The notes under the pieces are model-generated. The model was not told the origin of the DNA. It was given only the letters and a program-made list of their open reading frames with translations, and made no database searches. Below are positions 2,862 to 63,112 of a DNA stretch of 64,000 nucleotides, piece after piece. This stretch comes from Candidatus Coatesbacteria bacterium (lineage in GTDB: Bacteria; JAFGND01): contig JAFGND010000025.1 in the NCBI GenBank assembly GCA_016927185.1, positions 15,889 through 79,888 on the forward strand. Reading direction: 5' to 3'. How positions within the stretch are numbered: position 1 is the first letter of the stretch; every line of letters begins with the position of its first letter. A program made the translations under genes and the position numbers.

Positions 2862-3416
2862 TTATCTTTCCTTAGCTCCTGCTTTGCGAAGAATTACAGC
2901 TATTTCAGGATTTTCTTCTTCATCAACCATATCAAGAACTGATATTCCGTCGGAGTCTTTTGCGTTGACATTTGCTCCCTTGCTTATCAGGAATTTAACT
3001 AAATCCTTCTTGCCATAAAGTACTGCTATTATCAGGGGAGTCTCTCCATTCTCATTTTTTTCCTCTATATCAACGCCTTTCTCAAGCAAGAGATTTACCA
3101 TATCAATATTACCCATTTCACAGGCAAGATGTACTGGTGTCCTGAATTCATCGTCGGCTTTTTTTACATCTTCACCTTCTTTAATTGATAGTCTTGCTTT
3201 CTTAAGGTCATTTGATTTTATTGCTTCATGAAGTTTGCTTGTTCCTGAAACATCTTTGGTTTTCGAAGTATCCACCGAGTTGTCTTTGTTTGTTTCCTCA
3301 ATATCTTCATTTATATTACTTTTTCTCGTTTTTGTTCCGCAGTTAATGCTGAATATTAGAATGAGTGATAATATTATATAGATAGGCAATTTCATTTGTC
3401 CTCCAGTTTTCAGCAT
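2862..3416 (-). CDS. Secreted/lipoprotein ankyrin-repeat protein
   Basis: Signal peptide with Cys (…IFSINCGTK). At least three ankyrin repeats ('TPVHLACEMGNIDMVNLLLEKGVDIEEKNENGETPLIIAVLYGKKDLVKFLISKGANVNAKDSDG'). Confidence 0.7.
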   Translation of the reverse strand: MLKTGGQMKLPIYIILSLILIFSINCGTKTRKSNINEDIEETNKDNSVDTSKTKDVSGTSKLHEAIKSNDLKKARLSIKEGEDVKKADDEFRTPVHLACEMGNIDMVNLLLEKGVDIEEKNENGETPLIIAVLYGKKDLVKFLISKGANVNAKDSDGISVLDMVDEEENPEIAVILRKAGAKER

Positions 3417-7351: not shown

Positions 7352-7386
7352 AAAAAAGCCGAATAACTAAAATTCGGCTTTCTCTA
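7352..7386. terminator. Rho-independent terminator (bidirectional) after pfkA
   Basis: Perfect 9-bp stem 'aagccgaat'/'attcggctt' (7356-7364 / 7372-7380) with a 7-nt loop. A-run upstream and T-rich run downstream. Confidence 0.6.
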
Positions 7387-7398
7387 TTTCCTTTAATT

Positions 7399-7824
7399 TT
7401 ACTTAACCAGAAATGTCATACTGTCAAGTTTTGCATTATTAATATAGATAGTAACAGACCAGTAGCCAATTTTCATTGGAGCAGAACCTGTTCTAAAAAC
7501 TTTTGAGAATGCAACATCTTGAGTTCCATCCATTTCCACTTTCAAGTCAAGCACTGGTGACCAGTTGTTGCCTGATGCTTGTGACCAGACAAAGCGAATT
7601 ATTGTTCCCTTTGGTAGTGGTTTGACCCACGTCACTCTGCAGTTTAACAATCCAGTGAAATACTGTCCGATATGCCTCGAAGGATTATCAACTATACCTT
7701 CCTGATGTCCCAGTCCCAATTCTATTTTTACTGGGAAGGTTTCCGCCTGAGTCAAGGCATTCAAAGGCATTGCCATCATCAGCAAGCCTAAAAGAATTGT
7801 GATCATAGTAACTTTTTTTAACAT
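7399..7824 (-). CDS. Small secreted protein, paralog A (unknown function)
   Basis: Signal peptide. Shares the conserved core 'CRVTW..PLPKGT.I.F.W....G.W......DGTQDVA.S...R.G..P' with the next gene. Confidence 0.6.
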   Translation of the reverse strand: MLKKVTMITILLGLLMMAMPLNALTQAETFPVKIELGLGHQEGIVDNPSRHIGQYFTGLLNCRVTWVKPLPKGTIIRFVWSQASGNNWSPVLDLKVEMDGTQDVAFSKVFRTGSAPMKIGYWSVTIYINNAKLDSMTFLVK

Positions 7825-7837
7825 TTCTACTCCTTGA

Positions 7838-8413
7838 TTATTTAACAGTAAAGAAAACTTCTTTAACGAGCTTATCGTTTTCGAAAACTGTAACCTTGCA
7901 TTCGCCTCCTGCTATGGGACCTGTTCCCTGTCTGTATATTCTTGAATAAGCAACATCCTGTGTTCCGTCAAGCATGACAGTAGGTGGAGCCAGCAATCTT
8001 ACCCAGCTTCCTCCAGAATTTCTTGTCCATTCGAATTTGATGACTGTGCCTTTTGGAAGAGGAGAAGACCATGTTACTCTGCATATAGCATCTCCAACGA
8101 AATATTTAGAAATTACTGTCGTATAATTACGGATTGTTCCCTGGTTTCCCAAGCCGAACTCCACTTTCTTTGGTTGATGAACATCTGCAGATGGTGTTGG
8201 TGTTGGTGTTGGAGTAGGTGTTGGTGTTGGAGTAGGTGTTGGTTGAGGAGTATCCTTTTTCCCGAACATATCCGTGCACTGGCAAGCTACAGCTGCCAGA
8301 AATAGAATCAATGAAATTACAACTACAATTAATCTTATCTGCTTATGCTTTAGCATTTTACCCCCTTCTTTTAAGTACATTTTGAATGTGATTTCAATGG
8401 TTTTATTAAGCAA
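7838..8413 (-). CDS. Small secreted protein, paralog B, with (Thr-Pro)n linker
   Basis: Signal/TM anchor, 'PQPTPTPTPTPTPTPTPS' linker, then a domain homologous to 7399-7824. Confidence 0.6.
   Translation of the reverse strand: MLNKTIEITFKMYLKEGGKMLKHKQIRLIVVVISLILFLAAVACQCTDMFGKKDTPQPTPTPTPTPTPTPTPTPSADVHQPKKVEFGLGNQGTIRNYTTVISKYFVGDAICRVTWSSPLPKGTVIKFEWTRNSGGSWVRLLAPPTVMLDGTQDVAYSRIYRQGTGPIAGGECKVTVFENDKLVKEVFFTVK
8193..8244 (-). repeat. Coding tandem repeat (ggtgtt/ggagta units) encoding the (TP)n linker
   Basis: Direct tandem repetition visible in the sequence ('ggtgttggtgttggagtaggtgtt' x2). Confidence 0.5.
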
Positions 8414-8590: not shown

Positions 8591-9787
8591 TTAATCAATC
8601 TTCACCAACCTCTTGCATTCCTTCCCAGACTTAACAATATAAATCCCCTGTTTCCATTTACTTGTATCAATAGAGTGCTTGCCTTTGGCAAGGTTCATAA
8701 TAAGCTGACCAGTCAGGGAATAGATAGAAGCAGGGGAGGGGAGAGATAAGGACAAGTGGGTTGAGAATGGGTTGGGATAAGAATAAATCAAGAAAGAAGG
8801 TATTGCATTGGAACCATCAGCCCTATTAAAACCACTTTTATCTGTTGGATTATAGCAAACTGAATAAACATGATCAGTGTGTCCAGTAAACGTGTCTATG
8901 CATGTTCCGTTAGACAAGCGCCATAATTTAATATTATTATCATACCCTCCAGAGAGTCCATATCCATCATCCTTGCTGAAAATCACACTCAGAATTCCAT
9001 TTTCATGTCCATGCATTGTTCTCATACAAGAACCATCAGATAATCTCCAGTATTTGATGGATTTGTCCCTGTATCCGCTTCCTGATAAAGCATATCTGTT
9101 ATCATTACTTATATCAACTGAATATACTGCATCTTCATGCTCATTCATTGTTCTTATGCATGTCCCATCTGAAAATCTCCAGTATTTTAAGGTCCTGTCA
9201 TAACTACCAGAGAGAATGTAAGTACCATCTGAACTAATAGATACTGATGATACATAATTGGAATGTCCAGTTAAGGTTCTGATGCAAGTTCCATCTGACA
9301 ATTTCCAGAGTTTTATTGTATTGTCACAACTTCCTGATGCTGCATAATTACCATCTGGAAAGAATGCAACAGTATTCACCATACTTGCATGTCCTGTCAT
9401 TGTCCTTATGCAACTTCCTGTTGATAAATCCCAGTATTTAACAGTATTGTCCCAGCTTGCAGAAAGAGCTTTTGTTCCATCTGGACTGAATTTAACAGAA
9501 AAGACAGAGCTGGTGTGCCCCTTTAACCTGTTTAAAACGGTTTTTGTTTCCAACTCCCAGTATATTATTACACCTTCCATATCAGCTGAAAGAACATAAC
9601 AACCATCCGGACTTATATCAACACTGCATACTGGCAGGTAATGTTCTCTAAATGTAGCTGTATTAGTTGCTGTTGAAGTATCCCAGTACTTCAAGGTTTT
9701 ATCCCAGCTGCCTGAGATCGCGAATCTTTCTGCGTTTAGATTTGCTGCAATAAATATTAACAAGAACAAGAACAATAAATTTTTCAT
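8591..9787 (-). CDS. Secreted WD40 beta-propeller protein with T9SS-type C-terminal sorting domain
   Basis: Signal peptide. Seven or more 'SxSxDxTxKxW' WD40 blades ('SGSWDKTLKYWD', 'SASWDNTVKYWD', 'SGSCDNTIKLWK'…). C-terminal 'SYPNPFSTHLSLSLPSPASIYSLTGQLIMNLAKGKHSIDTSKWKQGIYIVKSGKECKRLVKID' matches the Por/T9SS CTD pattern (PNPF … GVYIVK). Confidence 0.75.
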   Translation of the reverse strand: MKNLLFLFLLIFIAANLNAERFAISGSWDKTLKYWDTSTATNTATFREHYLPVCSVDISPDGCYVLSADMEGVIIYWELETKTVLNRLKGHTSSVFSVKFSPDGTKALSASWDNTVKYWDLSTGSCIRTMTGHASMVNTVAFFPDGNYAASGSCDNTIKLWKLSDGTCIRTLTGHSNYVSSVSISSDGTYILSGSYDRTLKYWRFSDGTCIRTMNEHEDAVYSVDISNDNRYALSGSGYRDKSIKYWRLSDGSCMRTMHGHENGILSVIFSKDDGYGLSGGYDNNIKLWRLSNGTCIDTFTGHTDHVYSVCYNPTDKSGFNRADGSNAIPSFLIYSYPNPFSTHLSLSLPSPASIYSLTGQLIMNLAKGKHSIDTSKWKQGIYIVKSGKECKRLVKID

Positions 9788-10077
9788 AAAAATCTCCCCT
9801 TAAAAATTACTTGATTACTTTGAATTTAATCTTTCTAAGCCTTTGCATTAATTATTATTCACTAATTGTTTTTTTAGCATGGTTTATTAACAATATGAGT
9901 TGTTGCATTATGTTTAATTCAGAAATAGTATGTAAGATGCTATTTTATGTCAATAGAAAAATCCTTGAGGTTTAATCTAGCCCCTAGACATCATGAACTG
10001 AGTCTGTGAGGAAAATCATTTGTAACAGATCAAAACCAGGACTATAAAAATACTTTATAGATTCTCAAGGAAGCATC

Positions 10078-14577: not shown

Positions 14578-16338
14578 TCAATTAAGCTTTATAAGCTTGT
14601 CAGTATGCTCTCTGGAGCCTGTCCTAACTTTTATTATATATACTCCATTTTTGAAGGAACTGGTATCAGTCGTTATCAAGTGATTTCCTGCAGTATAAGA
14701 TCTTGATGCGTATGATTTTACAAGTCTTCCTGTAATATCATAAATAAGCACTTCAACATTATCTGTCTGTTTCAGATTGAAGTTAATCTTCAGTTTGTCA
14801 TTGAAAGGATTTGGAGATATCTTTACTCTCTCAGGTAAATGAAAATAGGATTTCTCTTTTGTTTCAAAACCAGTCTTGGTGAAATATAAGTCTATTACCT
14901 TGATTTCTCCTTCTGCAACAGTGAATGTCTGTGACTGAGGAGTGTCTCCAAGTAATATTGCTACAAGGGTATATGTTCCGGGAACAAGCAGATGTTTATA
15001 ACTTCCAAATGAATTAGAGAATACTGCTGAGGCTTTTTCGTTATCAAACAATTCAGCTATCTCTACAAGTACATTTGGTATTGGCTTGCCGTTCAGTTTA
15101 TTATATGTTTTTCCTGTTACCTGTGTCATATTAAGCCCAGCTTTCAGGAATTCCTTTGTTCCCTCGAAAGCATTCTCTATGGTTGGAAGAATATACTCAG
15201 CAGATGGGAAAAATCCACCTTCATCAGAGGAATTCAGTTCTATTGTATATGCATAGGTATGACCAGCTGCATATAACCAGTCATCGCTTCCGCCATAAGT
15301 AGGATATAGCTCATAACCTCTTTGTCCAGTATATCCCATTGTTGTGGCAGCTGCATTTCCAATTTTCCTGAATACTGCATCCTTCTTTGAAGCTTCGCTG
15401 TAACAACTCCAAGGCCACAGAACCAGCTCTCCATATGAATGAAAACTCAATGAAAGTAGTGGCTTTTTGGCAAGAGTGAAACTTCTTATTATCTGGATTT
15501 CAGGTTCACTAAACTGGGATGGACCTCTGTATGTTGGGCTGTTTGGATCAGTATCTCCTGATTCCCACATATATGCATAATTCCTGTTAAGATCAACTCC
15601 ATCTGCTCCATATCCTCCATAAGAATAATCCAGTACTCCGTTCGAATTGTTGTCCCTGAAATCCTTGCGCCACATTTGCTGCTCACTGTCAGTTGAATTG
15701 AAAACAAAATCATAACCATCTGGATTCACAATAGGAAGGAACCATAGCTCATAATTGTCTATCCATTCCTTGTAATCAAGTACGCTGCTGTAACCTTCCA
15801 CAAGTGTGTTCATAATATACATTACGGCTGAAACTGACATAGGTTCCCTTGCATGATGCAATCCCATTATCATGAAAATAGGCTCATCTTCATCAGTCGC
15901 AACATTGTCAGATACTTTTGCTACAAGCATATCAAAGCCTTTGTAATACGTCTGTTTGCCAGGATAACCATTCTTTTTTACCCAGGAATCTCCAGCATCA
16001 AAGTACTTGACTATACCTGGAAATCGCGTCTGGAGACTCATGATCTGTTCATAGACTTCTGAATAATCAAGATAATCAGGATCTATTCCTCCTATCATTT
16101 TCTTTAGTATAGTTCCGGAATAACCCAGTCTTTTGAGTTTCTCTATCTGCACAGGAGTAACAAGTAAATGAGCAGTCTTATTTGGAAGTATTGCTGCTAC
16201 ATCAAAGCCTGCTTTATAGAGTTTTGCTATTAGCTCAGGCGTAATTCCCCTTAATTCATATGTATATAGCGGAGCAGATGAGAAAAGCCCTGCATACATA
16301 ATTAAAATAAAGGTCAGTACAACAAAAAATATTTTCAT
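14578..16338 (-). CDS. M14-family zinc carboxypeptidase with T9SS C-terminal domain
   Basis: Signal peptide. 'GLHHAREPMS' (HxxE zinc motif of M14). C-terminal 'KISPNPFNDKLKINF…VEVLIYDITGRLV…NGVYIIKV' is a classic T9SS CTD. Confidence 0.8.
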   Translation of the reverse strand: MKIFFVVLTFILIMYAGLFSSAPLYTYELRGITPELIAKLYKAGFDVAAILPNKTAHLLVTPVQIEKLKRLGYSGTILKKMIGGIDPDYLDYSEVYEQIMSLQTRFPGIVKYFDAGDSWVKKNGYPGKQTYYKGFDMLVAKVSDNVATDEDEPIFMIMGLHHAREPMSVSAVMYIMNTLVEGYSSVLDYKEWIDNYELWFLPIVNPDGYDFVFNSTDSEQQMWRKDFRDNNSNGVLDYSYGGYGADGVDLNRNYAYMWESGDTDPNSPTYRGPSQFSEPEIQIIRSFTLAKKPLLSLSFHSYGELVLWPWSCYSEASKKDAVFRKIGNAAATTMGYTGQRGYELYPTYGGSDDWLYAAGHTYAYTIELNSSDEGGFFPSAEYILPTIENAFEGTKEFLKAGLNMTQVTGKTYNKLNGKPIPNVLVEIAELFDNEKASAVFSNSFGSYKHLLVPGTYTLVAILLGDTPQSQTFTVAEGEIKVIDLYFTKTGFETKEKSYFHLPERVKISPNPFNDKLKINFNLKQTDNVEVLIYDITGRLVKSYASRSYTAGNHLITTDTSSFKNGVYIIKVRTGSREHTDKLIKLN

Positions 16339-16396: not shown

Positions 16397-18163
16397 TTAA
16401 TTGATTTTCAATGCCTTCTTTATAAATATTTTATCCGCTACTCTGCATCTTAATATATAAACTCCATTACTCATGTTGCTGGAATTAAACCTGACTCCAT
16501 GATTACCAGAAGGATAAGAAGCCTTGACTAGTGTCTTGATAAGTCTTCCAGTCAGATCAAAGACCTCGACTAAAACATCAGATTTTTCACTGAGATTGAA
16601 GCTTATATTAAGCTCATTTCTGAAAGGGTTTGGAGCTAATTTTAAAGCTTCGGGAAGAATTTTTTGTGCAGTCTCGTTATTCTTGAAGCCGGCATAATCA
16701 AAATAAAAGTCTATTTCCTTTATTTCCTTGTCTGCAACAGTGAATGGTATTGTCTGTTTTGGATTAGCTCCATATTCTGCCTCAAGTGTATAATTTCCCG
16801 GAACCAATAAATAACGATATCTTCCGAATTCGTTTGTTTTCCTTGGAGTCCAGTGATTTGGATCATTAAGTTCCCTTATTGTGACTTTTACACCCTTGAT
16901 TGGATTTCCTGTTCCCCTAAGGAATGCTCTTCCAGTAACCTGTGTTGACAAACCATTTACAAAGAAAGCCCTCAAGCCTGACCATACTTTTTTCTGAGTG
17001 GGTTCTATCATTTCTGCTGGTGGAAAAAATCCGCCTTCATTATCTGTATTCATTTCTATTGTATAAGGATATGTACCAAGTTCAGCATATAACCAGTCAT
17101 CACTGGTTCCATAGCATGGATAAAGTTCCACTGCCTGTTCGGGAGTATAACCCATAGGAACTGCTGATTCTCTGCCGATCTTAGACAGAAGAGCTGCTTC
17201 CGTTGATGCAGAATAATAGCATCCCCATGGCCATAATACCAATCCTGAATAAGAATGCAAACTAACTGAAATAACTGGTTTCTTTGATAATGTCAAAGTT
17301 CTTATAACCTGAACCTCAGGTTCACTGAATGGATAAGGTCCGCGATACGTAGCAGAATACTGTGAATTATCACCTCTGCTCCATTCAAAAGAATAGTTCC
17401 TGTTCAAATCAACTCCATCAAGTCCATTGGCGCTACTACCGAAGTCTGCTTTGTGATTATTATTGTTATCTCTCAGATTCTTTCTCTGATTTTTTTCCCT
17501 GTTGTCATGATAATTAAATGATACATTATGACCATCTGGGTTTAACAATGGTACAAACCATATCTCATAAGAATCTACCCAGTTCTTGTATTCCGAGTTT
17601 GTTGCATATTGCTCTATGAGCTGCTGCATTGCATAAACCGAAACCTCAACTGTCATTGCCTCTCTTGCATGATGCAATGCCATGATAAGTAAAACAGGCT
17701 CATCTTCATCGGAATTTACATTATCAGATACCTTGAGTCCCATAATATCATAATCCTGATAATACCATTGATTATATTGCTTGTAATTGTTTGTCTTTAC
17801 CCATGGGTCACCCAGATCATAAAGCTTTGCAATGCCTGGATAATTTGAAGCAAGTCTCTGCATTTCCGTAAGAAGTTCATTATAATCAGTATATGCAGGA
17901 TCAAGCCCCTTGATATTGCTGTTTATCTCTCTCTTTATTACGCCAGAATAGCCAAGCGTTTTCAATTTTTCTATTTCATTCGCAGTAGCGAAAATGTGGG
18001 TGAATTTTCTAGGCATAACAGCTGCAACATCAAAACCTCTTGAAATTAGATCACCATTTTGTGAGCTCGTAAGGCCTTGAATTTCATATACATAAATGGG
18101 TTCGTCTGAGGATGCATAAGAGATAAAAAAGATAATAATACAAAAAGCAATTAATGTTTTCAT
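16397..18163 (-). CDS. M14-family zinc carboxypeptidase with T9SS C-terminal domain (tandem paralog)
   Basis: 'ALHHAREAMT'. C-terminal 'LAPNPFRNELNISF…VLVEVFDLTGRLI…NGVYILRC'. Homologous along its length to 14578-16338. Confidence 0.8.
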   Translation of the reverse strand: MKTLIAFCIIIFFISYASSDEPIYVYEIQGLTSSQNGDLISRGFDVAAVMPRKFTHIFATANEIEKLKTLGYSGVIKREINSNIKGLDPAYTDYNELLTEMQRLASNYPGIAKLYDLGDPWVKTNNYKQYNQWYYQDYDIMGLKVSDNVNSDEDEPVLLIMALHHAREAMTVEVSVYAMQQLIEQYATNSEYKNWVDSYEIWFVPLLNPDGHNVSFNYHDNREKNQRKNLRDNNNNHKADFGSSANGLDGVDLNRNYSFEWSRGDNSQYSATYRGPYPFSEPEVQVIRTLTLSKKPVISVSLHSYSGLVLWPWGCYYSASTEAALLSKIGRESAVPMGYTPEQAVELYPCYGTSDDWLYAELGTYPYTIEMNTDNEGGFFPPAEMIEPTQKKVWSGLRAFFVNGLSTQVTGRAFLRGTGNPIKGVKVTIRELNDPNHWTPRKTNEFGRYRYLLVPGNYTLEAEYGANPKQTIPFTVADKEIKEIDFYFDYAGFKNNETAQKILPEALKLAPNPFRNELNISFNLSEKSDVLVEVFDLTGRLIKTLVKASYPSGNHGVRFNSSNMSNGVYILRCRVADKIFIKKALKIN

Positions 18164-18432: not shown

Positions 18433-21400
18433 TTAACTTGTAAATCCGAATTTCTTGTCTTTTCCTAATAGCATTGTTGATAGTTTTTCAAAATCAGCTG
18501 ACATTTCAGGGAATTTTTCAGATATTCTCGAAATGGAAATCTCTTCCTTCAACTCCTTAAGCCATGTTCTTGCAGCAGGTTGCATTTTCATTATTATTTC
18601 CCTGAAGAGACTTACCGGAATTACCTGCTTGCCTTTGTTCTGATTGATACTATCCTGAAAAACCTTTTGTATGCATAATTGGTAAGCATTATCCATTTCT
18701 GCAAATGAAAAGCCAATGCTTGCATTAATTGTCTCAGTAACATCCTGCCCTTGAAACTTGCTTTCAAGATATTCCTTTCTTTCACTTTCGTCTGGAAGAG
18801 AGAAATAAACAAAACGATCAATTCTACCTGTAGAAAGAAGTGAAGATGAAACCATATGAGGATTTTTTGTAGTCCCTATAAAGTAAACAAATGTATTTTT
18901 TCCCTGTAGTGCATCAAGTTCAAGCTGGAACTGAGCAATCAATTCATTTGTCGTTTGCTTCTGCCATAATATATCAATGTCATCTACCAGAATCAAGGAA
19001 GGAGACTGTTCTATTGCGGTATTAAATAAATTAGCAATGTTCTTCGAAGCATTACCACTCCATAAATCTAGAAGCTCACTTCCCTTGACTGGTATCAAGG
19101 ATAAATCAGCTTCTCCTGCCAGACAATATGCACAAAAGCTCTTACCTGTACCTGGTGCTCCATAAAACAGGAAGCCTCTTGATAAATCAAGTCCATAATT
19201 CCTGGCTAGCTCCTGTTCTTTCATTGGAAGCAGTACTTCCTGTTTCAGTATTTCTTTCACGGATTTCAATCCGATCATGGTCTTGAAATTCCTGTCAGTT
19301 ACTTTCAATATCTGGAATTTTGCTAATCCTCTTTGCTGATCACTTCCTGCATATATCATTTTCTTGTGTATTCTAGCCTGGTACTTAAGCTCGCATGCGA
19401 GTTCCTGGAATTTATCATTTAGTGATGAAGGATCAATAGCAGCAGAACACGATTCGAACCATCCCCATAATTTGGGTTTTACCAGATTTATTGAATTCTT
19501 GACTGCCTCGAAATCAACAGGTGGGGCTTGAATCCTTGCTGCTGTACTGTCAGGGCGAGTATTCTCTTTTATGACCTTTGCAAATTGAGATTGCGAAGCA
19601 AGATAACATATATTTTCTATTTCCGCACCACTGTAACCTTCAGTCAATTTAGATAATGTCTTCCATTCTTCGTCAGTCAATTGAGGTGGCAATTTGAATT
19701 TATGTTTGAACATATCCAGCCTGGCTTGAATGGTCGGTACCCCAATGTAAATCAATCTGTCAATCCTTCCGGGTCTCAATATTGCCTCATCGATTGCCCA
19801 TGGTCTATTGCTTGCACCTATCACCATTATTTCCTCATCATTCGAGCCGAAACCATCAAGTTCAACGAGGAGCTGGTTTACCATTTCCAGATGAACGCTA
19901 GTTTGTGACCTGTCAACAGATTCTCTCTTACCGCAGAGAATATCAAGCTCATCAAGAAAAACAACGCATGGTGTATGATTCCCTGCAAACTTGAAAAGAT
20001 TCTGTATGTTTCTTGCACCATTTCCAACCCACATATCAACTATTTCTGATACTTTCACATTGATAAGTCCTGCCTGGAATCTTGCTGAAATCGCTTTTGC
20101 AAGCATAGTCTTGCCACATCCCGGAGGACCATAAAGCAGGATTCCCCTGTTTGCCTTCAAGCCATAATGCCTTGCTAGTTGAGGATATTCAAGAGGTGCA
20201 AATATTTCCTGATAAAGAGTTTCTTTTACATCTGCAAGCCCCATTACATCATTGAATGTCACATCATTGACTCGTGAGAGAGAGAAGATTGAAAGCCCTC
20301 TTGACGCACTTCCACTTGATACAGGCATTTTTTTCTTCTGTCTGTAATACCTTTCCATTTCTTCCTTTAATGCCATATATTTACTTTCCAGAACCTCAGA
20401 TTCTATATTTCTGTAGCAATCATCAAACCAGTCTTCCAGCGTAGGCTGGATTTCTTTCTGTGCTTCAAGAAGAAGTGGCATATCTATCAATATCTCTTTT
20501 TCCTGCTGTACAGCTGTTGATAGTGCCTTGCTTGCAGCAATATCAGTTATATTCTGGATTTCCGCTCCACTGTATTGATCTGTTTCCTGTGCCAGCCTCC
20601 TGTAATCAATATTATCTGAAATTGGTCTGTTTTCAAGATTAAGTCTGAATATCTCTGTTCTCATATCTTCATCAGGAACACCTACATAGAACATTCTGTC
20701 CAGTCTTCCTGGTCTTAGTGCTGCTGGATCCAGAGCCCATGGTCTGTTAGTAGCACCAACAATAAGTATTTGCCCCTCGCTTCTGCTGAGATTACCCATT
20801 TCTGCCAGAAATTGATTAACAGCTTTTCTTTGTTCTTCATGCATATTGACTGCCCTGTTAGTAAGGAAGGCATCCAGTTCATCAAGCAGGATCAGAGAAG
20901 GAGCATTTTCTTTTGCAAATTTAAACAGATTAGTGATATTTATTGCTGAGGTTCCCAGCCATACTCCTGAAATATCTGATGATTTCACATCGATGAAATT
21001 CATGCCTGTTTCACCACAAAGTGCTTGCATTATCAGAGATTTTCCACATCCCGGAGGACCATAAAGCAGGATTCCCCTGGTTAGATCAATCTGATAACGC
21101 TTAGCCTGAGCTGGATAACGAAAGGGGAGTACTACTTCCTCATAGAGTCTTTTCTTAAGGTCTTCGAAACCAGCTATCCTTGAAAAGTCCATTCCAGTGA
21201 TTTTCTGGACAGTGAATGTGGATAAACCTTTCTTCAGATCTTCATCATTTAGATACATTTCCTTATGAAAGGTCTGAATAGTCTGAGTGAAGAAACTTCT
21301 TACTAGTGAAACATCCTCTCCTTCCATGAAATTAAGAGAATCAAGTTCTTCTTTTGAAGAGGAGGAATTAATAAAAGCTCTGATTCTTTCTTTAGCAAGA

Positions 21401-22224
21401 TCAGTCTCTATATTAAGCTTATCTGCCCATTTGTAAGTATAAAGATTTATGAAGTGGACTTCATAAACCTCTTTTAAATCAGCGAGAAGTCTGGGTTGTT
21501 CCAGATTTATTGCAGCCGCTTCATTAATAAGCTCCTTGGCTTTTGGAGAGGAAAAAGGTAACATTGCAAGAGCAAAAGCTTCATAAAAATAGAAATTACG
21601 ATTTATTATATTTTCATCATACTTCATGGCAATATCAATACAATTCTTGTAGTCTTTGTCTATCTCGCTTTTCTGGAATCTATTTCTCATTGAATCTATT
21701 GTATATTTGAAATAAAGACATCTTACTGTTTCCCTTGCAATTCTTATATTCTTGGAATTGGGAAGTCCCTGAGAAAGGAACTCCAAACCGAGTTTTGCCC
21801 CGAAATCATAACCATTGAAGCGTTCCTGCATATCAAGCTCTTCATATAAACCAAGAAGCCTGTAACCTAAAACACCCATTTCGGGATAAATGAAACTTTT
21901 CTTGAATTCACCATGCATTTTCCTTAAGGCAATCAAAGCCTCTCCAAATATCTTCTTGGAATAGGTATCCTTTTCGAAATTGGCAAGCCCTCTTACTGCC
22001 TTGTCTTCTTCAATGAAGTTGTTCAAGGCATCATCTGAATAAAAAGTTGCATAATATATTATTACCTGAAGTAACCAGTTCTCAGGAAGAGAGTAATAGT
22101 ATTTGAAAGCTAACTGGAAAGCCATCATCAAGTTGTCTCCCTCGAAAAGGCAATTTATGGCTTCCCGCAAATCATTTTCAAATTGCTTTCTATCAAACTT
22201 TGCAGCAGGTGGTGTTGGTGACAT
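18433..22224 (-). CDS. Triple-AAA+ ATPase (three tandem classic-clade AAA modules) with ~330-aa helical N-terminal domain
   Basis: Walker A in three places ('ILLYGPPGCGKS', 'ILLYGPPGCGKT', 'FLFYGAPGTGKS'). Each is followed by Walker B (LILLDELD / VVFLDELD / LILVDDID) and second-region Arg ('RPGRLDR', 'RPGRIDR', 'STGRIDR'). Confidence 0.8.
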   Translation of the reverse strand: MSPTPPAAKFDRKQFENDLREAINCLFEGDNLMMAFQLAFKYYYSLPENWLLQVIIYYATFYSDDALNNFIEEDKAVRGLANFEKDTYSKKIFGEALIALRKMHGEFKKSFIYPEMGVLGYRLLGLYEELDMQERFNGYDFGAKLGLEFLSQGLPNSKNIRIARETVRCLYFKYTIDSMRNRFQKSEIDKDYKNCIDIAMKYDENIINRNFYFYEAFALAMLPFSSPKAKELINEAAAINLEQPRLLADLKEVYEVHFINLYTYKWADKLNIETDLAKERIRAFINSSSSKEELDSLNFMEGEDVSLVRSFFTQTIQTFHKEMYLNDEDLKKGLSTFTVQKITGMDFSRIAGFEDLKKRLYEEVVLPFRYPAQAKRYQIDLTRGILLYGPPGCGKSLIMQALCGETGMNFIDVKSSDISGVWLGTSAINITNLFKFAKENAPSLILLDELDAFLTNRAVNMHEEQRKAVNQFLAEMGNLSRSEGQILIVGATNRPWALDPAALRPGRLDRMFYVGVPDEDMRTEIFRLNLENRPISDNIDYRRLAQETDQYSGAEIQNITDIAASKALSTAVQQEKEILIDMPLLLEAQKEIQPTLEDWFDDCYRNIESEVLESKYMALKEEMERYYRQKKKMPVSSGSASRGLSIFSLSRVNDVTFNDVMGLADVKETLYQEIFAPLEYPQLARHYGLKANRGILLYGPPGCGKTMLAKAISARFQAGLINVKVSEIVDMWVGNGARNIQNLFKFAGNHTPCVVFLDELDILCGKRESVDRSQTSVHLEMVNQLLVELDGFGSNDEEIMVIGASNRPWAIDEAILRPGRIDRLIYIGVPTIQARLDMFKHKFKLPPQLTDEEWKTLSKLTEGYSGAEIENICYLASQSQFAKVIKENTRPDSTAARIQAPPVDFEAVKNSINLVKPKLWGWFESCSAAIDPSSLNDKFQELACELKYQARIHKKMIYAGSDQQRGLAKFQILKVTDRNFKTMIGLKSVKEILKQEVLLPMKEQELARNYGLDLSRGFLFYGAPGTGKSFCAYCLAGEADLSLIPVKGSELLDLWSGNASKNIANLFNTAIEQSPSLILVDDIDILWQKQTTNELIAQFQLELDALQGKNTFVYFIGTTKNPHMVSSSLLSTGRIDRFVYFSLPDESERKEYLESKFQGQDVTETINASIGFSFAEMDNAYQLCIQKVFQDSINQNKGKQVIPVSLFREIIMKMQPAARTWLKELKEEISISRISEKFPEMSADFEKLSTMLLGKDKKFGFTS
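20114..20149 (-). repeat. 36-nt exact direct repeat (copy 2) inside the AAA gene, encoding 'RGILLYGPPGCG' of module 2
   Basis: Identical to 21044-21079. Confidence 0.8.
21044..21079 (-). repeat. 36-nt exact direct repeat (copy 1) inside the AAA gene, encoding 'RGILLYGPPGCG' of module 1
   Basis: Identical to 20114-20149. Confidence 0.8.
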
Positions 22225-22239
22225 TTCACTCCTTTAAAA

Positions 22240-23595
22240 CTATTTGGTGGTTGAAATCCTTTTTTCCATCAAACTGTCAAATCTTTTTGAGTAATTCTGT
22301 AATAATGCAGGTAATTTAGACAACTCTATATCATTCAGTGGAGGAAAAGAAATCAACCTGTTTTTCAGTGGATTAACATTCCTTCCTCCAACTTTTATCC
22401 TGTAATCCAGGTGAGGACCTGTACTTAATCCTGTTGAACCGACATATCCAATAACTCTTCCTGTTTTTACGAATGTGCCTTTGTTTACTCCTTTTGCAAA
22501 ACTGTTCAAATGTCCATAATAAGTGACAACTCCTGCCATATGCTTTATTGCAATCATGTTTCCGTATCCTCCACTCCTTCCCTTCATGACAACAGTACCT
22601 GATGAAGCTGCTCGAACTGGAGTTCCTTTTTTTGCAACAAAGTCTATTGCAAGGTGAGGTCTGTATCTCTTTAGAATAGGATGCATTCTTCTAATTCTAT
22701 AATTACTGGATATCCTTTTGAATCTTAACGGTATTATTAATGCAATTCTGTGAAGGCACTTTCCTGTTTCAGTATAATACAGACCTTCCCCTGGATCCTT
22801 TTCAAGAATAGGAAGAGAATCATCTTCAGCTACAACTTCTTCCTGTTTCAATGATGAAGGATAAAAAGCCAACTGGTATGTCCTGTCAGTTGTTTCTGCC
22901 TTGCTCCACCATAACTGCTTGAATTCTCTTCTTCCTCCGGGTAAAACCTGTTCAGTTATCAGGAATGAAAAGACAGTCCCTTTTTCTCTGCATTTCTTTG
23001 TTCCTATATATCTTGCCCAGAATTGTATTGCTTGCTTGATAAAAGCTGGATTATTATATTTCTCGGCAAGCATTGGCTGCATTCTTGTTGAGAGAGTGCA
23101 AACCAAGGCTCTTTCCTGAAGCCCTTCCTTCATTGTTACGCACTGCATAAGCCATCCATGAGAAGTCCTGTAACCCCGGTATATCTCCTTGCTTTCTCTT
23201 TGAAGTTCAAGACTGTCAATTGATCCATCAGCATTCTTTGAAAATAATGTTATTTTATCTCCCTTCTGAGATATTCCAACATCCTTGTTCTCCTTGAAAG
23301 CTTCAACCAGGCTATCAATCCTGTTCTCAGGTTGTCCTATTCTCAGAAAAAAGTCGTTCCATGTCTCCCTTGTTTTCACTTCAATTAATTCTGGATAGTA
23401 ACCTGAAGGTTTAATTTTTTCCTCCACCTTCACAGGTTCTTCTTTTTTTTCGCTTTTCCTTGATATTTCAATGAATAATCCTCTTACACTTATAAAAACA
23501 AGGAAAATACCAATAATAAGAATAAAAAGAAGTCCATAAGGCAAGAATCTGTTCCAAATGATGAGGTTTTTCCATATATCCTTAAGGAAATTCAT
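22240..23595 (-). CDS. Membrane-anchored M23/LytM-family metallopeptidase
   Basis: N-terminal TM helix. C-terminal 'GYVGSTGLSTGPHLDYRIKVGGRNVNPL' is the M23 HxH/HLH zinc motif region. Overlaps the upstream gene by 4 nt (atga). Confidence 0.75.
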   Translation of the reverse strand: MNFLKDIWKNLIIWNRFLPYGLLFILIIGIFLVFISVRGLFIEISRKSEKKEEPVKVEEKIKPSGYYPELIEVKTRETWNDFFLRIGQPENRIDSLVEAFKENKDVGISQKGDKITLFSKNADGSIDSLELQRESKEIYRGYRTSHGWLMQCVTMKEGLQERALVCTLSTRMQPMLAEKYNNPAFIKQAIQFWARYIGTKKCREKGTVFSFLITEQVLPGGRREFKQLWWSKAETTDRTYQLAFYPSSLKQEEVVAEDDSLPILEKDPGEGLYYTETGKCLHRIALIIPLRFKRISSNYRIRRMHPILKRYRPHLAIDFVAKKGTPVRAASSGTVVMKGRSGGYGNMIAIKHMAGVVTYYGHLNSFAKGVNKGTFVKTGRVIGYVGSTGLSTGPHLDYRIKVGGRNVNPLKNRLISFPPLNDIELSKLPALLQNYSKRFDSLMEKRISTTK

Positions 23596-25739
23596 TTTAC
23601 TGTTTCTTCTTTTCCTGCAATCATTTCTATAAGCCGTGATATCTGTTTTGAATACTTCGGATCATTTATCAGGAAGTTATAGTATATGGCTTTCATCAAG
23701 TTTTCATTAGCACTTTTTTCCATTTGTAGCATATATTGTGACCATGCCAGGACAGTGTATGCTGGTGTCCATTTACTCCTATGCTTTATTATTTCAGAAG
23801 CAATCTCTGCTGATAATAAATACTGCTTATTGATTAGAGCCAGTTCTGCATGAATAAGCTTAATTGAAGTTAGATCAGGATGCTTGCTAGCGTAAGATGA
23901 CATGAGTTTATATGAATCAAGATAATTTTTTTTCTTGAAAAGCAAACAGGCCTTTACAAACTCTGACTCTTCTGGATTATTCCTGAGTTTTTTGGAGATA
24001 TTTTTTAAAAGAAAAAGCCTTATCTTGCCTACCATGAATTGAGACAATACAAGCAAAGAATCAGCATTTTCAAGACTCATAAGGTACTTGCCTTCTTCTG
24101 TCTTCGGATCAACAAGGAAATAATCAACTTCCGAAACACTATTGAAGTCGCTTATTCCATTTTCATGGAGAACGAATCTTGTCTTGTTACTTAATCCAGG
24201 CAGCGCAGACCAGGAAGCACCCAACTTCTTGTTTCCAACAATCTCTGCAACCTCCCTGCTTGTAGCAAGTTGAGAAAACTGCTGATTGTTATTATTAGCA
24301 GAGATATGAATGACAAGGAAATATGAATTCACCAGGAAAAGAAATCCAGCGAAATATTTGACATAGTTCAGGTTGAGATTGAGTTTTTCTTTTCTCATGA
24401 ACATGAGAATCAATATCGCTGCAATCAAGGATATCAAATCGTGTAAATAGGCTGGTTTAGTGAATTTCAATATCATCATATCCTCGTCATGCATATACAT
24501 CATATATCTTTGTGGAATGAACTCACCAGCAGCAAAAGTGAATCTCAAGAACGTGTAGCAGACAATTGCTAGTATTGGCAAGAGAATCAAGTAATGTAAT
24601 AATGAGAAGTCTGGGTTCTCGAAAATATTCTTTTTCTTCATCACTTTCCACATTTCGATGATTACTATTGGCATGGGAAGCAGAAGCATCATTTCATATC
24701 TTAATGGACAATATGTATTCAGGGAAAGATAGCATGGTATAAGTAAAAGCATCAGGATACTCCATTTTACATATAATCTCAGATTAGCTCCATATTGTTT
24801 TACTGAATAAATTGATGCAATACCTAAAGCCAGATAGCCAAGAATCATTTGAGCAGGAGCTTGCTGGGCAAGTAAAGAAAAAGTTCCTATTCTTCTTAAG
24901 CCATCAATATAATCATATATGGAAGTTATCATTGGTTGGGCTTTTGTTATAGTCAAATATGCATTTTTCCATTCCTGGTAATCAGGCAAAATAAGTATAA
25001 AAAGATATAGAATGAATGTAGCAAATGCTCCAGATAGAAAAAAGACTAACCTGTTCCTTGCTTCTCTTCTACCATTAAATGGCAACAGGAAATCCCATAG
25101 CAAAGAGATGAAAGTCACTAATACTATACTTGAAGCTGCAGCTTTTATTCCCATTGCAGCAAGAACCATCAATGACCCTCCCAGAGATATCAAGTATTTA
25201 TTATTCTTTAGTATAAGGAGCAATCCTGTCATTACTAAGGCAAACATCGGAAATTCAAGAAGCGCTAGCTTGCCATAAGCATAGAATGGTATGCAGAGAA
25301 CGAATATCAAGCAGCCTATAAAAGAATGAAGTTCATCGTTTTCCTTTCTCAATATTGAAAAATAGATGAATATCAGTCCTAATGCAGAGAGAATGCTTAT
25401 CAATCTAGCCGAGAAGAAAGAGACACCTATAACTTTGAAAACAGAATACTGAATTATTGAAAGAAATGATGTCAGATAGAATCTTGGCCAATTCCCCTCA
25501 GGTTTCCATGAGCCGAAATATATCTTGTTGATCGCAGGTGCTGCCCAGAAAGCTTCATCAGAGAAAGGTCCTGCAGACCAGCTCATCCCGAGCAGGGGAT
25601 CCCCCTCTGTTTCATGAAATAAAAGGAAAGCAGATATAATAAGCAGAATAATGAAACATATCTTGACTTTCGGGATTCGTATTTTTCGTTCCTTTACTGT
25701 ACTTGATGAACGCAATGTTTTTGATTTTTTCTTTGCCAT
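23592..25739 (-). CDS. GT-C fold glycosyltransferase (PMT_2 / family 39/83-like) with C-terminal TPR region; TMTC-like architecture
   Basis: About 12 TM helices. First periplasmic loop 'FSDEAFWAAPAINKIYFGSWKPEGNWPRFYLTSF…FSARLISILSALGLIFIYF' fits the PMT_2/ArnT loop-1 'DE' pattern. Last ~150 aa are soluble and TPR-like. Confidence 0.55.
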   Translation of the reverse strand: MAKKKSKTLRSSSTVKERKIRIPKVKICFIILLIISAFLLFHETEGDPLLGMSWSAGPFSDEAFWAAPAINKIYFGSWKPEGNWPRFYLTSFLSIIQYSVFKVIGVSFFSARLISILSALGLIFIYFSILRKENDELHSFIGCLIFVLCIPFYAYGKLALLEFPMFALVMTGLLLILKNNKYLISLGGSLMVLAAMGIKAAASSIVLVTFISLLWDFLLPFNGRREARNRLVFFLSGAFATFILYLFILILPDYQEWKNAYLTITKAQPMITSIYDYIDGLRRIGTFSLLAQQAPAQMILGYLALGIASIYSVKQYGANLRLYVKWSILMLLLIPCYLSLNTYCPLRYEMMLLLPMPIVIIEMWKVMKKKNIFENPDFSLLHYLILLPILAIVCYTFLRFTFAAGEFIPQRYMMYMHDEDMMILKFTKPAYLHDLISLIAAILILMFMRKEKLNLNLNYVKYFAGFLFLVNSYFLVIHISANNNNQQFSQLATSREVAEIVGNKKLGASWSALPGLSNKTRFVLHENGISDFNSVSEVDYFLVDPKTEEGKYLMSLENADSLLVLSQFMVGKIRLFLLKNISKKLRNNPEESEFVKACLLFKKKNYLDSYKLMSSYASKHPDLTSIKLIHAELALINKQYLLSAEIASEIIKHRSKWTPAYTVLAWSQYMLQMEKSANENLMKAIYYNFLINDPKYSKQISRLIEMIAGKEETVK

Positions 25740-25831: not shown

Positions 25832-27094
25832 GTGAAAAGGAATGCATTTGTTTTTCTGGCTTTTATAATGATCGCCTGTTCAAGCATGTCTAGCAAAGCC
25901 AGAAATGAAGATCAAAAAACTGACACCAAAGAAGAAATCTCAGAGGAAATGAAAAAAGAAGGTATCCGGAAAGTGCTTACTGGAATAGATGTTCTTGAAA
26001 GAGATTCTTTCAAGATTCTCAAAGGCAAGAGAATAGGTTTGATAACAAATCATTCCGCCCAAAATAGTAATGGAATTAGTACAGTTGAACTGCTTTCCAG
26101 GAATACAAGACTTGTGAAATTGTTCGCTCCAGAACATGGTATAGAAGGAAGTCATGGAAAACCTTTCCCTGGTTCCTGGAATTATGATTATGGTATTCCT
26201 GTCATAAGTTTATACTCAAAGTCAAAAAAACCTTCATCTTCTGATCTGGACGATATTGATGCTTTAGTATTCGATATCCAATCTGCTGGAGCAAGATATT
26301 ATACCTATATAACCACAATGGGATATTGTATGGAAGCAGCTGCAATGCATAACAAGGAATTCATTGTCCTGGACAGACCTAATCCTGCAGGAGGAAATAA
26401 AGTAAGTGGAGCTGTTCCCCTGAAAACAGAATGTAAAAGCTTCATCTGCTATTATTCACTTGCAACTCAGCATGGTATGACTATTGGAGAACTTGCTAAT
26501 ATGTTCAAGGAGGAAAAGAAGTTAAGTCTTGAACTGACAGTCATTCAAATGAAAGGATGGAGTAGAAGCATGACCTATGACAAAACAGGTCTTTCATATA
26601 TACCACCTTCTCCCAATCTCAAGAGACAGGAATCAATTATACCTTATTGCATACTTGGCTTTCTTGAGCATTCAAATATTTCGGTAGGCAGGGGAACTGA
26701 ATATCCGTTTGAAATCTATGGAGCTCCTTTTATTGATGAAAAGAATATGGTAGAAGAACTCAACAACTTCAGATTGAAAGGTGTTGAATTCAAGGAAGCG
26801 ACTTTTATTCCAGAAGGAAGTTTTTACAAAGGAAAACTGTGCAAAGGTTTCAGGATTCATATTTCTGATAAATCTGAATACGAGGGAAATGAAATTGCAA
26901 TGGCAGTATTGGTAACTCTTCACAAGCTGAATAAACATAATTTCAAGCCTTCAAATGCTTTTAACTCAGCATTTGGCTCAAGAAAGATTTCGAATCTGGT
27001 CTTCAGGGATACTGACATAAAGATACTGAAACATCTATTAATGAAACAGAATGAGACCTTTCTTGGCAGGAGAAAAAAATACTTGTTATATTGA
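25832..27094 (+). CDS. namZ: DUF1343-family exo-beta-N-acetylmuramidase (NamZ-like) lipoprotein
   Basis: Lipobox 'IACSS'. Motifs 'LFAPEHG', 'LVFDIQSAGARYYTYITTM', 'IVLDRPNPAGG', 'HGMTIGELA', 'PPSPN', 'VGRGTEYPFE' match the DUF1343 family consensus. Confidence 0.7.
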   Translation: MKRNAFVFLAFIMIACSSMSSKARNEDQKTDTKEEISEEMKKEGIRKVLTGIDVLERDSFKILKGKRIGLITNHSAQNSNGISTVELLSRNTRLVKLFAPEHGIEGSHGKPFPGSWNYDYGIPVISLYSKSKKPSSSDLDDIDALVFDIQSAGARYYTYITTMGYCMEAAAMHNKEFIVLDRPNPAGGNKVSGAVPLKTECKSFICYYSLATQHGMTIGELANMFKEEKKLSLELTVIQMKGWSRSMTYDKTGLSYIPPSPNLKRQESIIPYCILGFLEHSNISVGRGTEYPFEIYGAPFIDEKNMVEELNNFRLKGVEFKEATFIPEGSFYKGKLCKGFRIHISDKSEYEGNEIAMAVLVTLHKLNKHNFKPSNAFNSAFGSRKISNLVFRDTDIKILKHLLMKQNETFLGRRKKYLLY

Positions 27095-61500: not shown

Positions 61501-61839
61501 ATGAAAACACTTAAACTTAGGTTTGTTTTTTTATTGCTTATTGGAATGTCAGGAATTCTTTTTGGAAAAACTGTTTATGGGTACTGCAGATGTGAACACT
61601 GGCAATTTGGGTGGTTTTATCCAGCTGGAGTCTATGTTCAATTAGGATCAGCAAATACAACAACTGCTGCTGGAGGATATTATGAATTTAACTGCCCATT
61701 AACTTATGATGATTATACTGTTTATGCATCTTACAATGATGGACAAAATCATTGGAGTGGTTATACTGACTTCTATTATGAAGGAGGAGAACAGAGAGTA
61801 GATATTGATCTTTATTATGATTCAATTAAGAATAAGTAG
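61501..61839 (+). CDS. Small secreted protein (possible CarboxypepD_reg-like beta-sandwich)
   Basis: Signal peptide. 'GGYYEFNCPLTYDDYTVYASYNDG' loosely resembles the carboxypeptidase-regulatory-domain motif. Confidence 0.4.
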   Translation: MKTLKLRFVFLLLIGMSGILFGKTVYGYCRCEHWQFGWFYPAGVYVQLGSANTTTAAGGYYEFNCPLTYDDYTVYASYNDGQNHWSGYTDFYYEGGEQRVDIDLYYDSIKNK

Positions 61840-61873: not shown

Positions 61874-63112
61874 ATGAAAACTGTAAATAAATTTAAGAAA
61901 TCACTACTTAAAGGAGTTACAATGAAAACGACAAACTCGTTAGTTATTATAATATTAGCATTTTCAATAGAATTTATTTCTTCTGAACCAATGTACATTT
62001 TATCATCCAGTTCCGATAGAACAATGAAATACTGGCAGATATCGGATACAAAATGTATAAGATCATTTACTGGTCATGAAGGTAGTGTTCGATTTGTATC
62101 AATCTCTCCAGATAGCAAGTATGCTTTGTCAGGGAGTGGTGATAATACATTGAAGTACTGGAACATTTCAGATGGAGCTTGCATAAGAACATTTACTGGT
62201 CATGATGATGAGGTAAATTCTGTTTCCATTTCACGAGATGGATTATATGCATTATCTGCAAGTAATGATCATACATTGAAATTATGGAGAATATCTGATG
62301 GAGCATGCTTGAGGACTTTTTATGGACACAATAGAGAAGTATGGTCGGTCTGCTTTTCACCTGATGATAGATATGCTTTATCAGGAGGTGATGATATAAA
62401 ATACTGGAATATTTCAGATGGTACCTGTATAAGGACATTAAGGGGACATGCTACTAGCGTAATGTCAGTATGTTTCAAAACTGATGGTCAATTTGTTCTT
62501 TCAGGAAGTGTTGATATGACCTTGAAATATTGGCAGTTATCAGATGGGAAATGTATAAGAACATTTACTGGACATACAGGATCAGTCAATTCAGTCTGTT
62601 TATCTTCAGATAACCTGTATGCTTTATCAGGTAGTTATGATCAGTTGATTAAATACTGGAGAGTATCTGATGGAGAATGCTTGAAAACGCTTGCAGGACA
62701 CATGAATTGTATTTATTCAGTTAACATTTCTTCTGATGGAAAATATGCAGTCTCAGGTGGAGATTATGGATCTCTTAAATACTGGAGTATATCAGAAGGC
62801 AAATTTATTAAATCATTTGAAGGACATGAAGCATCAGTAACATCAGTTAGTTTTTTCTCTCAGGAAACAAGTTTCAAAGATAACAATTCAGCATCACATA
62901 TTCCATCCAAAACCTTCTCAGTTTCCCCCAATCCATTCACTGAAAGACTTACTATTTCCCTGCCATCGTCAGGAGCTATCTATTCCATTACTGGTCAATT
63001 GATTATGAAACTGGATAAAGGAAAACACTCTCTTGATACAAGCAAATGGAAACGGGGAGTTTATATTGTGAAGAGCCTGATGGAATGCAAGAAGATTGTA
63101 AAGGTGAAGTAA
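61874..63112 (+). CDS. Secreted WD40 beta-propeller protein with T9SS-type C-terminal sorting domain
   Basis: Seven or more WD40 blades ('SSSDRTMKYWQ', 'SGSGDNTLKYWN', 'SASNDHTLKLWR'…). C-terminal 'SPNPFTERLTISLPSSGAIYSITGQLIMKLDKGKHSLDTSKWKRGVYIVKSLMECKKIVKVK'. The true start is possibly the internal Met of 'MKTTNSLVIIILAFS'. Confidence 0.75.
   Translation: MKTVNKFKKSLLKGVTMKTTNSLVIIILAFSIEFISSEPMYILSSSSDRTMKYWQISDTKCIRSFTGHEGSVRFVSISPDSKYALSGSGDNTLKYWNISDGACIRTFTGHDDEVNSVSISRDGLYALSASNDHTLKLWRISDGACLRTFYGHNREVWSVCFSPDDRYALSGGDDIKYWNISDGTCIRTLRGHATSVMSVCFKTDGQFVLSGSVDMTLKYWQLSDGKCIRTFTGHTGSVNSVCLSSDNLYALSGSYDQLIKYWRVSDGECLKTLAGHMNCIYSVNISSDGKYAVSGGDYGSLKYWSISEGKFIKSFEGHEASVTSVSFFSQETSFKDNNSASHIPSKTFSVSPNPFTERLTISLPSSGAIYSITGQLIMKLDKGKHSLDTSKWKRGVYIVKSLMECKKIVKVK

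Follow-up and report, generated by a model that had tools for sequence, protein, structure and literature searches.

A WD40 propeller with a signal peptide and a type A sorting domain in Candidatus Coatesbacteria, probable cargo of a type IX secretion system

Introduction

How might a WD40 β-propeller come to leave the cell, and what would it do there? The question is raised by a gene of a Candidatus (Ca.) Coatesbacteria bacterium that lies in the 64,000-nucleotide stretch of DNA analysed here, called the window below (assembly GCA_016927185.1, contig JAFGND010000025.1, positions 15,889 to 79,888 of the forward strand). An earlier note, made from the sequence of the window, had read the gene as encoding a secreted WD40 protein with a type IX secretion system (T9SS) C-terminal domain (CTD). 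The coordinates that it gave coincide exactly with one open reading frame (ORF), which is found on the minus strand (Table 1). We suggest that the precursor, made up of a Sec signal peptide, a seven-bladed WD40 propeller, a linker and a type A CTD, is probably exported by a T9SS to act as a binding propeller at the cell surface or in released form, and that it belongs to a lineage-restricted family.

The note had set this protein against the view that WD40 domains are overwhelmingly cytoplasmic, a view that is centred on eukaryotes: 32 of the 120 closest homologues of the protein have N-termini resembling a signal peptide or a lipobox. PorZ of the T9SS is a double propeller that bears a CTD and retains it. 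The literature search gave no paper on a WD40 cargo of the T9SS and nothing past PorE. BamB and PorE are familiar examples of propellers in the periplasm (PMC7192894), and PorE, a T9SS component, is a periplasmic lipoprotein with a WD40 domain (PMC12773672, PMC7192894).

Results

Architecture of the precursor

The N-terminus has the tripartite anatomy of a signal peptide: Met-Lys, a 13-residue hydrophobic region (LLFLFLLIFIAAN, mean Kyte-Doolittle value 2.8) and NLNA/E, which places an alanine at position −1. It contains no cysteine and hence no lipobox, residues 2–17 are modelled as a low-confidence helix, and the full-length members of the family begin in a similar way. Judged by this anatomy, the cleavable signal peptide proposed in the earlier note fits the protein well.

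PF00400 matches the propeller in eight stretches (E 1.1e-71, 234.7 bits, cutoff 27). The AlphaFold2 (AF2) model, which was built from the nine-sequence family alignment, has a mean predicted local distance difference test score (pLDDT) of 89.2 and mostly exceeds 90 in the propeller. It contains 28 strands across residues 22–312, that is, seven four-stranded blades, and the N-terminal strands B and C (22–36) complete blade 7 in a velcro closure. In Foldseek, the propeller superposes on the seven-bladed 7BID with a template modelling (TM) score of 0.98 and a root-mean-square deviation of 1.1 Å; the TM score is 0.88 with PkwA (5YZV) and about 0.85 (1.6 Å) with WDR5. The domain is therefore a WD40 propeller, as proposed, and of the seven or eight blades that had been allowed for, the 28 strands and the superposition on 7BID give seven.

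The blades had also been called highly regular. The regularity is real: the GH, S-G-S-x-D and K-[YL]-W elements, the signature of the hydrogen-bond tetrad, line up in five of the seven blades when the repeats are stacked, the deviating ones being blade 1 (EH, SADMEG) and blade 5 (EH, with a two-residue insertion). Its degree is moderate, with a mean identity between blades of 43% (range 29–57%) and several pairs below 40%. Hu et al. recognise two classes of repetitive WD40 protein, MR and HR, with thresholds of 0.4 and 0.7 that all pairs among six repeats must pass (PMC5587647), and the blades fall below both. Recent duplication of blades within the gene was considered and ruled out, since no tandem repeat was found in the gene at the DNA level and the blades are 29–57% identical.

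Behind the propeller, the linker (residues 320–332 have pLDDT values below 50) leads to a seven-strand β-sandwich at residues 335–396, modelled with pLDDT values of 87–91. TIGR04183 scores 36.6 bits here (cutoff 23; residues 337–393 of 398) and PF18962 scores 36.2 bits (cutoff 27). The earlier note had named a tail that failed to score with T9SS models as one of two results that would tell against its reading; because both curated thresholds are passed, the tail is a T9SS CTD, and the combination of signal peptide, WD40 propeller and T9SS CTD (of type A) that the note had described is supported and implies export. With the CTDs of Flavobacterium, Saprospiraceae, Ignavibacteria and Calditrichaceae it shares 28–45% identity. 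When the alignment of linker and CTD was compared with the GTDB representative genomes and with metagenome contigs, only remote CTDs (28–55% identity) were retrieved and no member of the family. These remote matches indicate homology to the CTDs of phyla in which the T9SS is established, and they indicate that the family is rare.

A constrained cassette behind diverging propellers

The linker and CTD behave as one cassette. They are more conserved than the propeller in all 36 pairs of family members (for example, 71 versus 43%, 78 versus 54% and 99 versus 62% identity), and F320 and P330 of the linker are invariant in the family alignment (A1). Gene conversion was ruled out as the source of this conservation, since third codon positions at conserved residues have diverged equally in the two parts: they are identical in 25 of 45 cases in the cassette (56%) and in 82 of 145 in the propeller (57%). 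The conservation of the cassette therefore reflects purifying selection.

An exhaustive search of 1.84 billion representative sequences with the cassette profile returned 71 clusters at E≤1e-10, and among the matches listed the cassette stands at the C-terminal end. The passengers are WD40 propellers in 17 clusters and PQQ_2/BamB-like, DUF5122 or DUF5074-type propellers in others. All the named sources are metagenome-assembled genomes (MAGs) of Ca. Coatesbacteria, on at least seven contigs. The propeller cargo set (WD40, PQQ/BamB-like, DUF5122 and DUF5074) is a single constrained cassette joined to diverging propeller surfaces, and, as far as its sources are named, it is restricted to Coatesbacteria. 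Outside the family, the closest matches to the propeller are cyanobacterial kinase-WD40 proteins (47–49% identity; 40–49% across the kinase-linked WD40 domains of cyanobacteria), which align over the propeller only.

In three metagenomic members from separate clusters (P0018, P0042 and P0070), a hydrophobic tail (…ENIFLLFLL) runs past the normal end of the CTD, which is then not strictly terminal. The tail may be real, or it may be an artefact of read-through or of gene calling.

Two larger proteins, P0006 (669 residues) and P0021 (624 residues), have a different layout: a signal peptide, a WD40 propeller, a region resembling cohesin/dockerin and a CTD of another type (…YPNPFNPETWIPY…). This layout indicates that CTD-bearing cargo has acquired WD40 propellers on more than one occasion.

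Paralogues on the contig

Four WD40 proteins with this CTD are encoded on one 89,117-bp Ca. Coatesbacteria contig: the protein described here, a paralogue in the window at 61874–63112, P0032 (MBN1232300) and P0038 (MBN1232302). The last two are about 400 residues long, match our protein from end to end, carry the NCBI label ‘T9SS type A sorting domain-containing protein’ and, from the order of their accessions, lie a few genes past the right edge of the window. The paralogue in the window is 47% identical to our protein in the propeller and 57% in the cassette; its true start is likely to be Met17, at 61922. In all, the window holds five ORFs that are positive for TIGR04183, two of which encode M14 carboxypeptidases, and P0032 and P0038 fall just outside it.

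The three other paralogues are clustered within a few kilobases, interleaved with small proteins that have signal peptides (112 residues, 61501–61839; 219 residues, 63142–63801), and the gene described here is a separate fourth copy. MBN1232295.1, of 155 residues (Table 1), is either the remnant of a gene for a PQQ-like propeller cargo or a minimal cargo protein in its own right; short forms like it (P0145 and P0279) occur on other Coatesbacteria contigs.

Flanking proteins that identify the window as part of this contig include MBN1232259.1 and the EF-Tu MBN1232293.1. The gene call for our protein was found, identical, on Logan contig SRR13394437_853963 and nowhere else. The exact proteins of this gene and of the paralogue in the window are missing from the protein collection, although it does contain neighbouring proteins of the NCBI MAG. 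Probably the deposited annotation gave both genes other start codons or omitted them.

An outer membrane protein family that travels with T9SS genes

The gene that adjoins ours on the 5′ side encodes an outer membrane protein (OMP)-like product of 1120 residues (Table 1). Its sole T9SS match is a sub-threshold one to the SprA model TIGR04189 (33.8 bits, cutoff 200; 89 residues of a model of about 2300). Its homologues are about 1100 residues long, the family has no Pfam entry, and neither phmmer nor the family profile found a sequence match in the PDB. The AF2 model is of low confidence (pLDDT 56), and Foldseek relates it to generic barrels only (TM score of 0.25 or less); with SprA (6H3I) the TM score is about 0.2, no better than with TonB-dependent transporters.

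More informative are the relatives of this protein. BLASTP aligns it over about 800 residues with P0125 from Ca. Aegiribacteria (1e-35) and with P0128 (5e-32), and homologues are encoded at L054/L055 (10001–13123) and L056 (10001–13336), loci that represent Ca. Aegiribacteria, an FCB (Fibrobacteres–Chlorobi–Bacteroidetes)-superphylum lineage (PMC4846661), and a second lineage. At these loci the genes form a string on one strand: first a PorU-like sortase (matched by NF033707 at E 1.6e-99), next a member of the PorV family (NF033709, 238 bits, cutoff 90), then an M6-like cargo with a CTD, three small genes, the OMP of about 1100 residues and an overlapping BamA/POTRA-like gene. Because its homologues share this string with PorU and PorV, we regard the 1120-residue protein as a member of a T9SS-linked family. 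The synteny lends the presence of T9SS machinery indirect support, which falls short of proof, and the family could represent a reduced translocon or some other outer membrane component of the T9SS.

Features of the locus and other genes

The features of the locus are collected in Table 1. The Shine-Dalgarno-like element was read from the sequence and lies 6 nucleotides before the ATG; the promoter-like element, in the 290-bp gap 5′ of the gene, is a consensus match only (10 of 12 positions in a consensus scan). Two plus-strand ORFs (8877–9203 and 9408–9599) overlap the gene, and we have treated them as by-products of its minus-strand coding frame.

Table 1. Features of the propeller locus and related genes in the window
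Feature	Position	Strand	Basis and remarks
Complete coding sequence	8591..9787	−	ATG-initiated ORF, 398 residues plus stop; covers all four parts, from the signal peptide to the T9SS CTD
Sec-type signal peptide, residues 1–19 (MKNLLFLFLLIFIAANLNA/E)	9731..9787	−	n/h/c anatomy; predicted cleavage site
Closed seven-bladed WD40 β-propeller, residues 20–312	8852..9730	−	PF00400, AF2, Foldseek
Linker, residues 313–334	8786..8851	−	G-F...P motif; predicted disordered; conserved in the family
T9SS type A CTD, residues 335–398 (PNPF...GIYIVK...KRLVKID)	8594..8785	−	TIGR04183, PF18962, AF2
Shine-Dalgarno-like AAGGGGAG	9794..9801	−	
Promoter-like TTGACA-17-TACTAT	9925..9953	−	
Two small signal-peptide proteins, 191 residues (7838–8413) and 141 residues (7399–7824)	7399..8413	−	ORFs directly 3′ of the propeller gene
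OMP-like protein, 1120 residues	10078..13440	−	Adjoins the propeller gene 5′ across a 290-bp gap; signal peptide, C-terminal ...RFLF, many long predicted strands
MBN1232295.1, 155 residues	60982..61449	+	Signal peptide, single PQQ/BamB-like blade stretch, same linker and CTD; cassette hidden Markov model 127 bits
WD40 paralogue in the window	61874..63112	+	Signal peptide, WD40, same cassette; tblastn; TIGR04183 26.7 bits (cutoff 23), PF18962 35.0 bits

The two small proteins encoded directly 3′ of the propeller gene are paralogous (45% identity, E 1e-32) and have no family match in the Pfam and NCBIfam scans. The larger has a (PT)n linker behind its hydrophobic N-terminus. The sole strong hairpin terminator, at 7355–7381, lies past both, and the three genes may be co-transcribed.

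Further away, a tandem pair of genes at 14578–16338 and 16397–18163 (both minus strand) encodes M14 zinc carboxypeptidases. Both enzymes have a CarboxypepD_reg domain as well as a T9SS CTD, whose subtype differs from the propeller cassette (about 33% identity) and is more divergent. They are followed by a gene for a 1263-residue protein with three AAA+ modules resembling CDC48/FtsH/PAN (18433–22224, minus strand; 344 bits to PF00004) and, on the same strand, by an M23 peptidase gene (22240–23595) and a gene for a 715-residue protein with no family match (23592–25739). The 737-residue product of a plus-strand gene at 29422–31635 is a membrane protein in which a protein O-mannosyltransferase domain resembling TMEM260 is recognised; next to this gene are genes for an HldE-like heptose kinase (28411–29412) and a NamZ exo-muramidase (25832–27094), and the group may be relevant to glycosylation of surface proteins. 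The 184-residue ankyrin-repeat protein encoded at 2862–3416 (minus strand) finds its best matches in Legionella Ank effectors, all far below cutoff.

Discussion

Export route and possible role

We suggest the following route. Sec would carry the precursor to the periplasm, where the signal peptide would be cut near A19/E20 and the propeller would fold. The CTD would then be recognised by a T9SS-type export apparatus of the outer membrane, and the propeller would be displayed at the cell surface or released. Its most likely function there, in keeping with WD40 propellers in general, would be non-catalytic binding through the variable top face. The peptidases encoded near the gene (the two M14 enzymes, a Xaa-Pro aminopeptidase, an M42 and an M23 peptidase) make the capture of peptides or proteins a reasonable guess.

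Several observations weigh against this proposal. The signal peptide call is heuristic and comes from anatomy alone. The second contrary result named in the earlier note was a genome with no T9SS core genes; among most of the larger ORFs of the window, the NCBIfam and Pfam models found no GldK/L/M/N, PorV, PorU, PorQ or full-length SprA, and the SprA-like nature of the 1120-residue neighbour is unproven, its structural comparison having been made with a low-confidence model. NCBI taxonomy places Coatesbacteria among the unplaced candidate phyla and not in the FCB group, and no paper on a T9SS in Coatesbacteria was found. As for the binding role, variability peaks in the loops of the top face (D-A 1.83 and B-C 1.72 bits, against 1.29 and 1.09 bits for the bottom loops and 0.80 bits for the CTD), a pattern that is typical of WD40 families generally and that here comes from nine sequences.

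Periplasmic protein or secretion component

The same gaps, namely the lack of a canonical T9SS core gene among the window ORFs scanned, the position of the phylum formally outside the FCB group and the silence of the literature, would be expected if the protein were a periplasmic propeller in a lineage without a functional T9SS, its C-terminal immunoglobulin-like domain serving a structural or binding purpose. BamB and PorE provide precedents for such a protein (PMC7192894). We consider this unlikely on the following grounds: the tail passes two curated CTD thresholds and stands at the C-terminus among the matches listed, the cassette is under stronger constraint than its passenger, CTDs are also found on M14 peptidases of the same genome, which are typical T9SS cargo, and the adjacent OMP belongs to a family that in two lineages is syntenic with PorU and PorV.

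The position of the gene, on the same strand as this PorU/PorV-linked OMP and 290 bp 3′ of it, could instead suggest that the propeller works together with the OMP as an accessory part of the secretion or attachment machinery, in the manner of PorZ or PorE. PorZ shares with our protein both a propeller fold and a CTD. The protein described here, however, has one propeller and not two, and besides its CTD it matches no NCBIfam model for a T9SS component. At least four diverging paralogues on one contig would be unusual for a machinery subunit. Nor is the arrangement kept elsewhere: L054, L056, L033 and L057 do not retain the adjacency to the OMP, and at none of L032, L033, L053, L054, L056 and L057 do WD40-CTD genes lie next to the OMP family or to T9SS genes. 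Even with the precedent of PorE, whose WD40 domain belongs to the machinery (PMC12773672), we regard such a role as improbable, somewhat more so than a periplasmic location, and retain export as T9SS cargo as the probable fate of the protein.

The cysteines of the propeller

The earlier note had drawn attention to a Cys-Ile-Arg-Thr motif found in most blades and had seen in it a candidate for a disulphide or ligand site specific to the family. The motif is certainly present in most blades. In the form G-[ST]-C-[IM]-x-T it occurs in five of the seven, as CIRT at 126, 168 and 210, CMRT at 254 and CIDT at 296, which is far above chance. The AF2 model and the alignment put each of the five cysteines in a different blade and each time in strand D, which is the outer one. 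The G-x-C motif is also enriched in the CTD-bearing family (3.0 per protein on average; the figure for 111 other matches is 0.58), and cysteine occupies four of the five motif columns in seven or eight of the nine family sequences and the fifth in six.

None of these columns is invariant, however. The cysteine is replaced by leucine in all blades of P0118 and by leucine, phenylalanine or arginine in other members, and the residue of Nostoc 2YMU that aligns with it is a leucine. At least three such motifs are present in 11 of the 111 WD40 homologues that have no CTD, and GNCLQT occurs six times in P0013 and in P0047 (a HET-E1-like protein of Symbiodinium), neither of which has a CTD. From their place in strand D, their replacement by leucine, phenylalanine or arginine in relatives and their presence in WD40 proteins with no CTD, it follows that the cysteines are not specific to the family; they look mostly like hydrophobic packing residues of strand D, structural rather than functional. 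With each cysteine on the outer strand of a separate blade, pairing between them seems geometrically implausible, as judged from their placement in the model rather than from measured distances, and a family-specific disulphide or ligand site is very improbable.

Comparison with known proteins

As cargo, the protein resembles the type A CTD proteins of established systems, such as RgpB of Porphyromonas gingivalis and the CTD proteins of Flavobacterium, in combining a signal peptide with a C-terminal sorting domain of about 65–70 residues that has PNPF, G-x-Y and K-x-x-K motifs and is predicted to form a seven-strand sandwich. It differs from them in that its passenger is a true WD40 propeller (PF00400) with no catalytic domain, in its host, Ca. 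Coatesbacteria, where the T9SS is undescribed, and in its cassette, which is unusually conserved and common to several classes of propeller.

The propeller itself has the seven-bladed fold of PkwA from Thermomonospora curvata (5YZV), Nostoc punctiforme 2YMU and WDR5 (TM scores of 0.85–0.98, 1.0–1.6 Å), and it shares with bacterial WD40 propellers the G-x-[CL]-[IL]-x-T-L-x-GH pattern of strand D and the following loop. Whereas those proteins are cytoplasmic and either fused to a kinase or stand-alone, ours carries a signal peptide as well as a CTD and lacks further domains.

Among components of the T9SS of P. gingivalis, PorZ and PorE are likewise extracytoplasmic and contain propellers. PorZ has two, in contrast to the single one of 293 residues found here, which occurs in multiple paralogues and for which the CTD is the sole T9SS model above threshold. 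The WD40 domain of PorE (PMC12773672, PMC5053529) is part of a TPR-WD40-CRD-OmpA_C lipoprotein that, unlike our protein, has no CTD.

Closest in layout are the PQQ/BamB-like propellers with a CTD (P0132, P0136 and P0150), which have the same cassette and a similar size (about 430–460 residues) but are matched by PF13360/PF13570 instead of PF00400. Propeller passengers on T9SS CTDs are in fact commonplace, in this lineage as elsewhere. The protein is a further example of propeller cargo, and its paralogues have already been correctly labelled by annotation pipelines.

Implications

A bolder idea is that Coatesbacteria and related lineages maintain a surface repertoire of diversifying propeller ‘receptors’ (WD40, PQQ-like and DUF5122), exported by way of one cassette through a non-canonical T9SS in which the OMP of about 1100 residues replaces or complements the 2400-residue SprA. 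We think this unlikely, and unless the idea of a variant translocon is true, current views are unchanged. The OMP family found in the company of porU and porV is nonetheless the more interesting lead, as it could be the sign of a variant secretion apparatus.

For the T9SS field, CTDs are here in heavy use in a phylum outside the named FCB phyla. For the search for extracellular ligands, the locus offers a small and well-defined family: several paralogues with a single propeller and no further domain. More generally, it provides a clean example of the WD40 fold, known as a ‘cytoplasmic scaffold’, also serving bacteria as exported or surface cargo, as the architecture described here would suggest.

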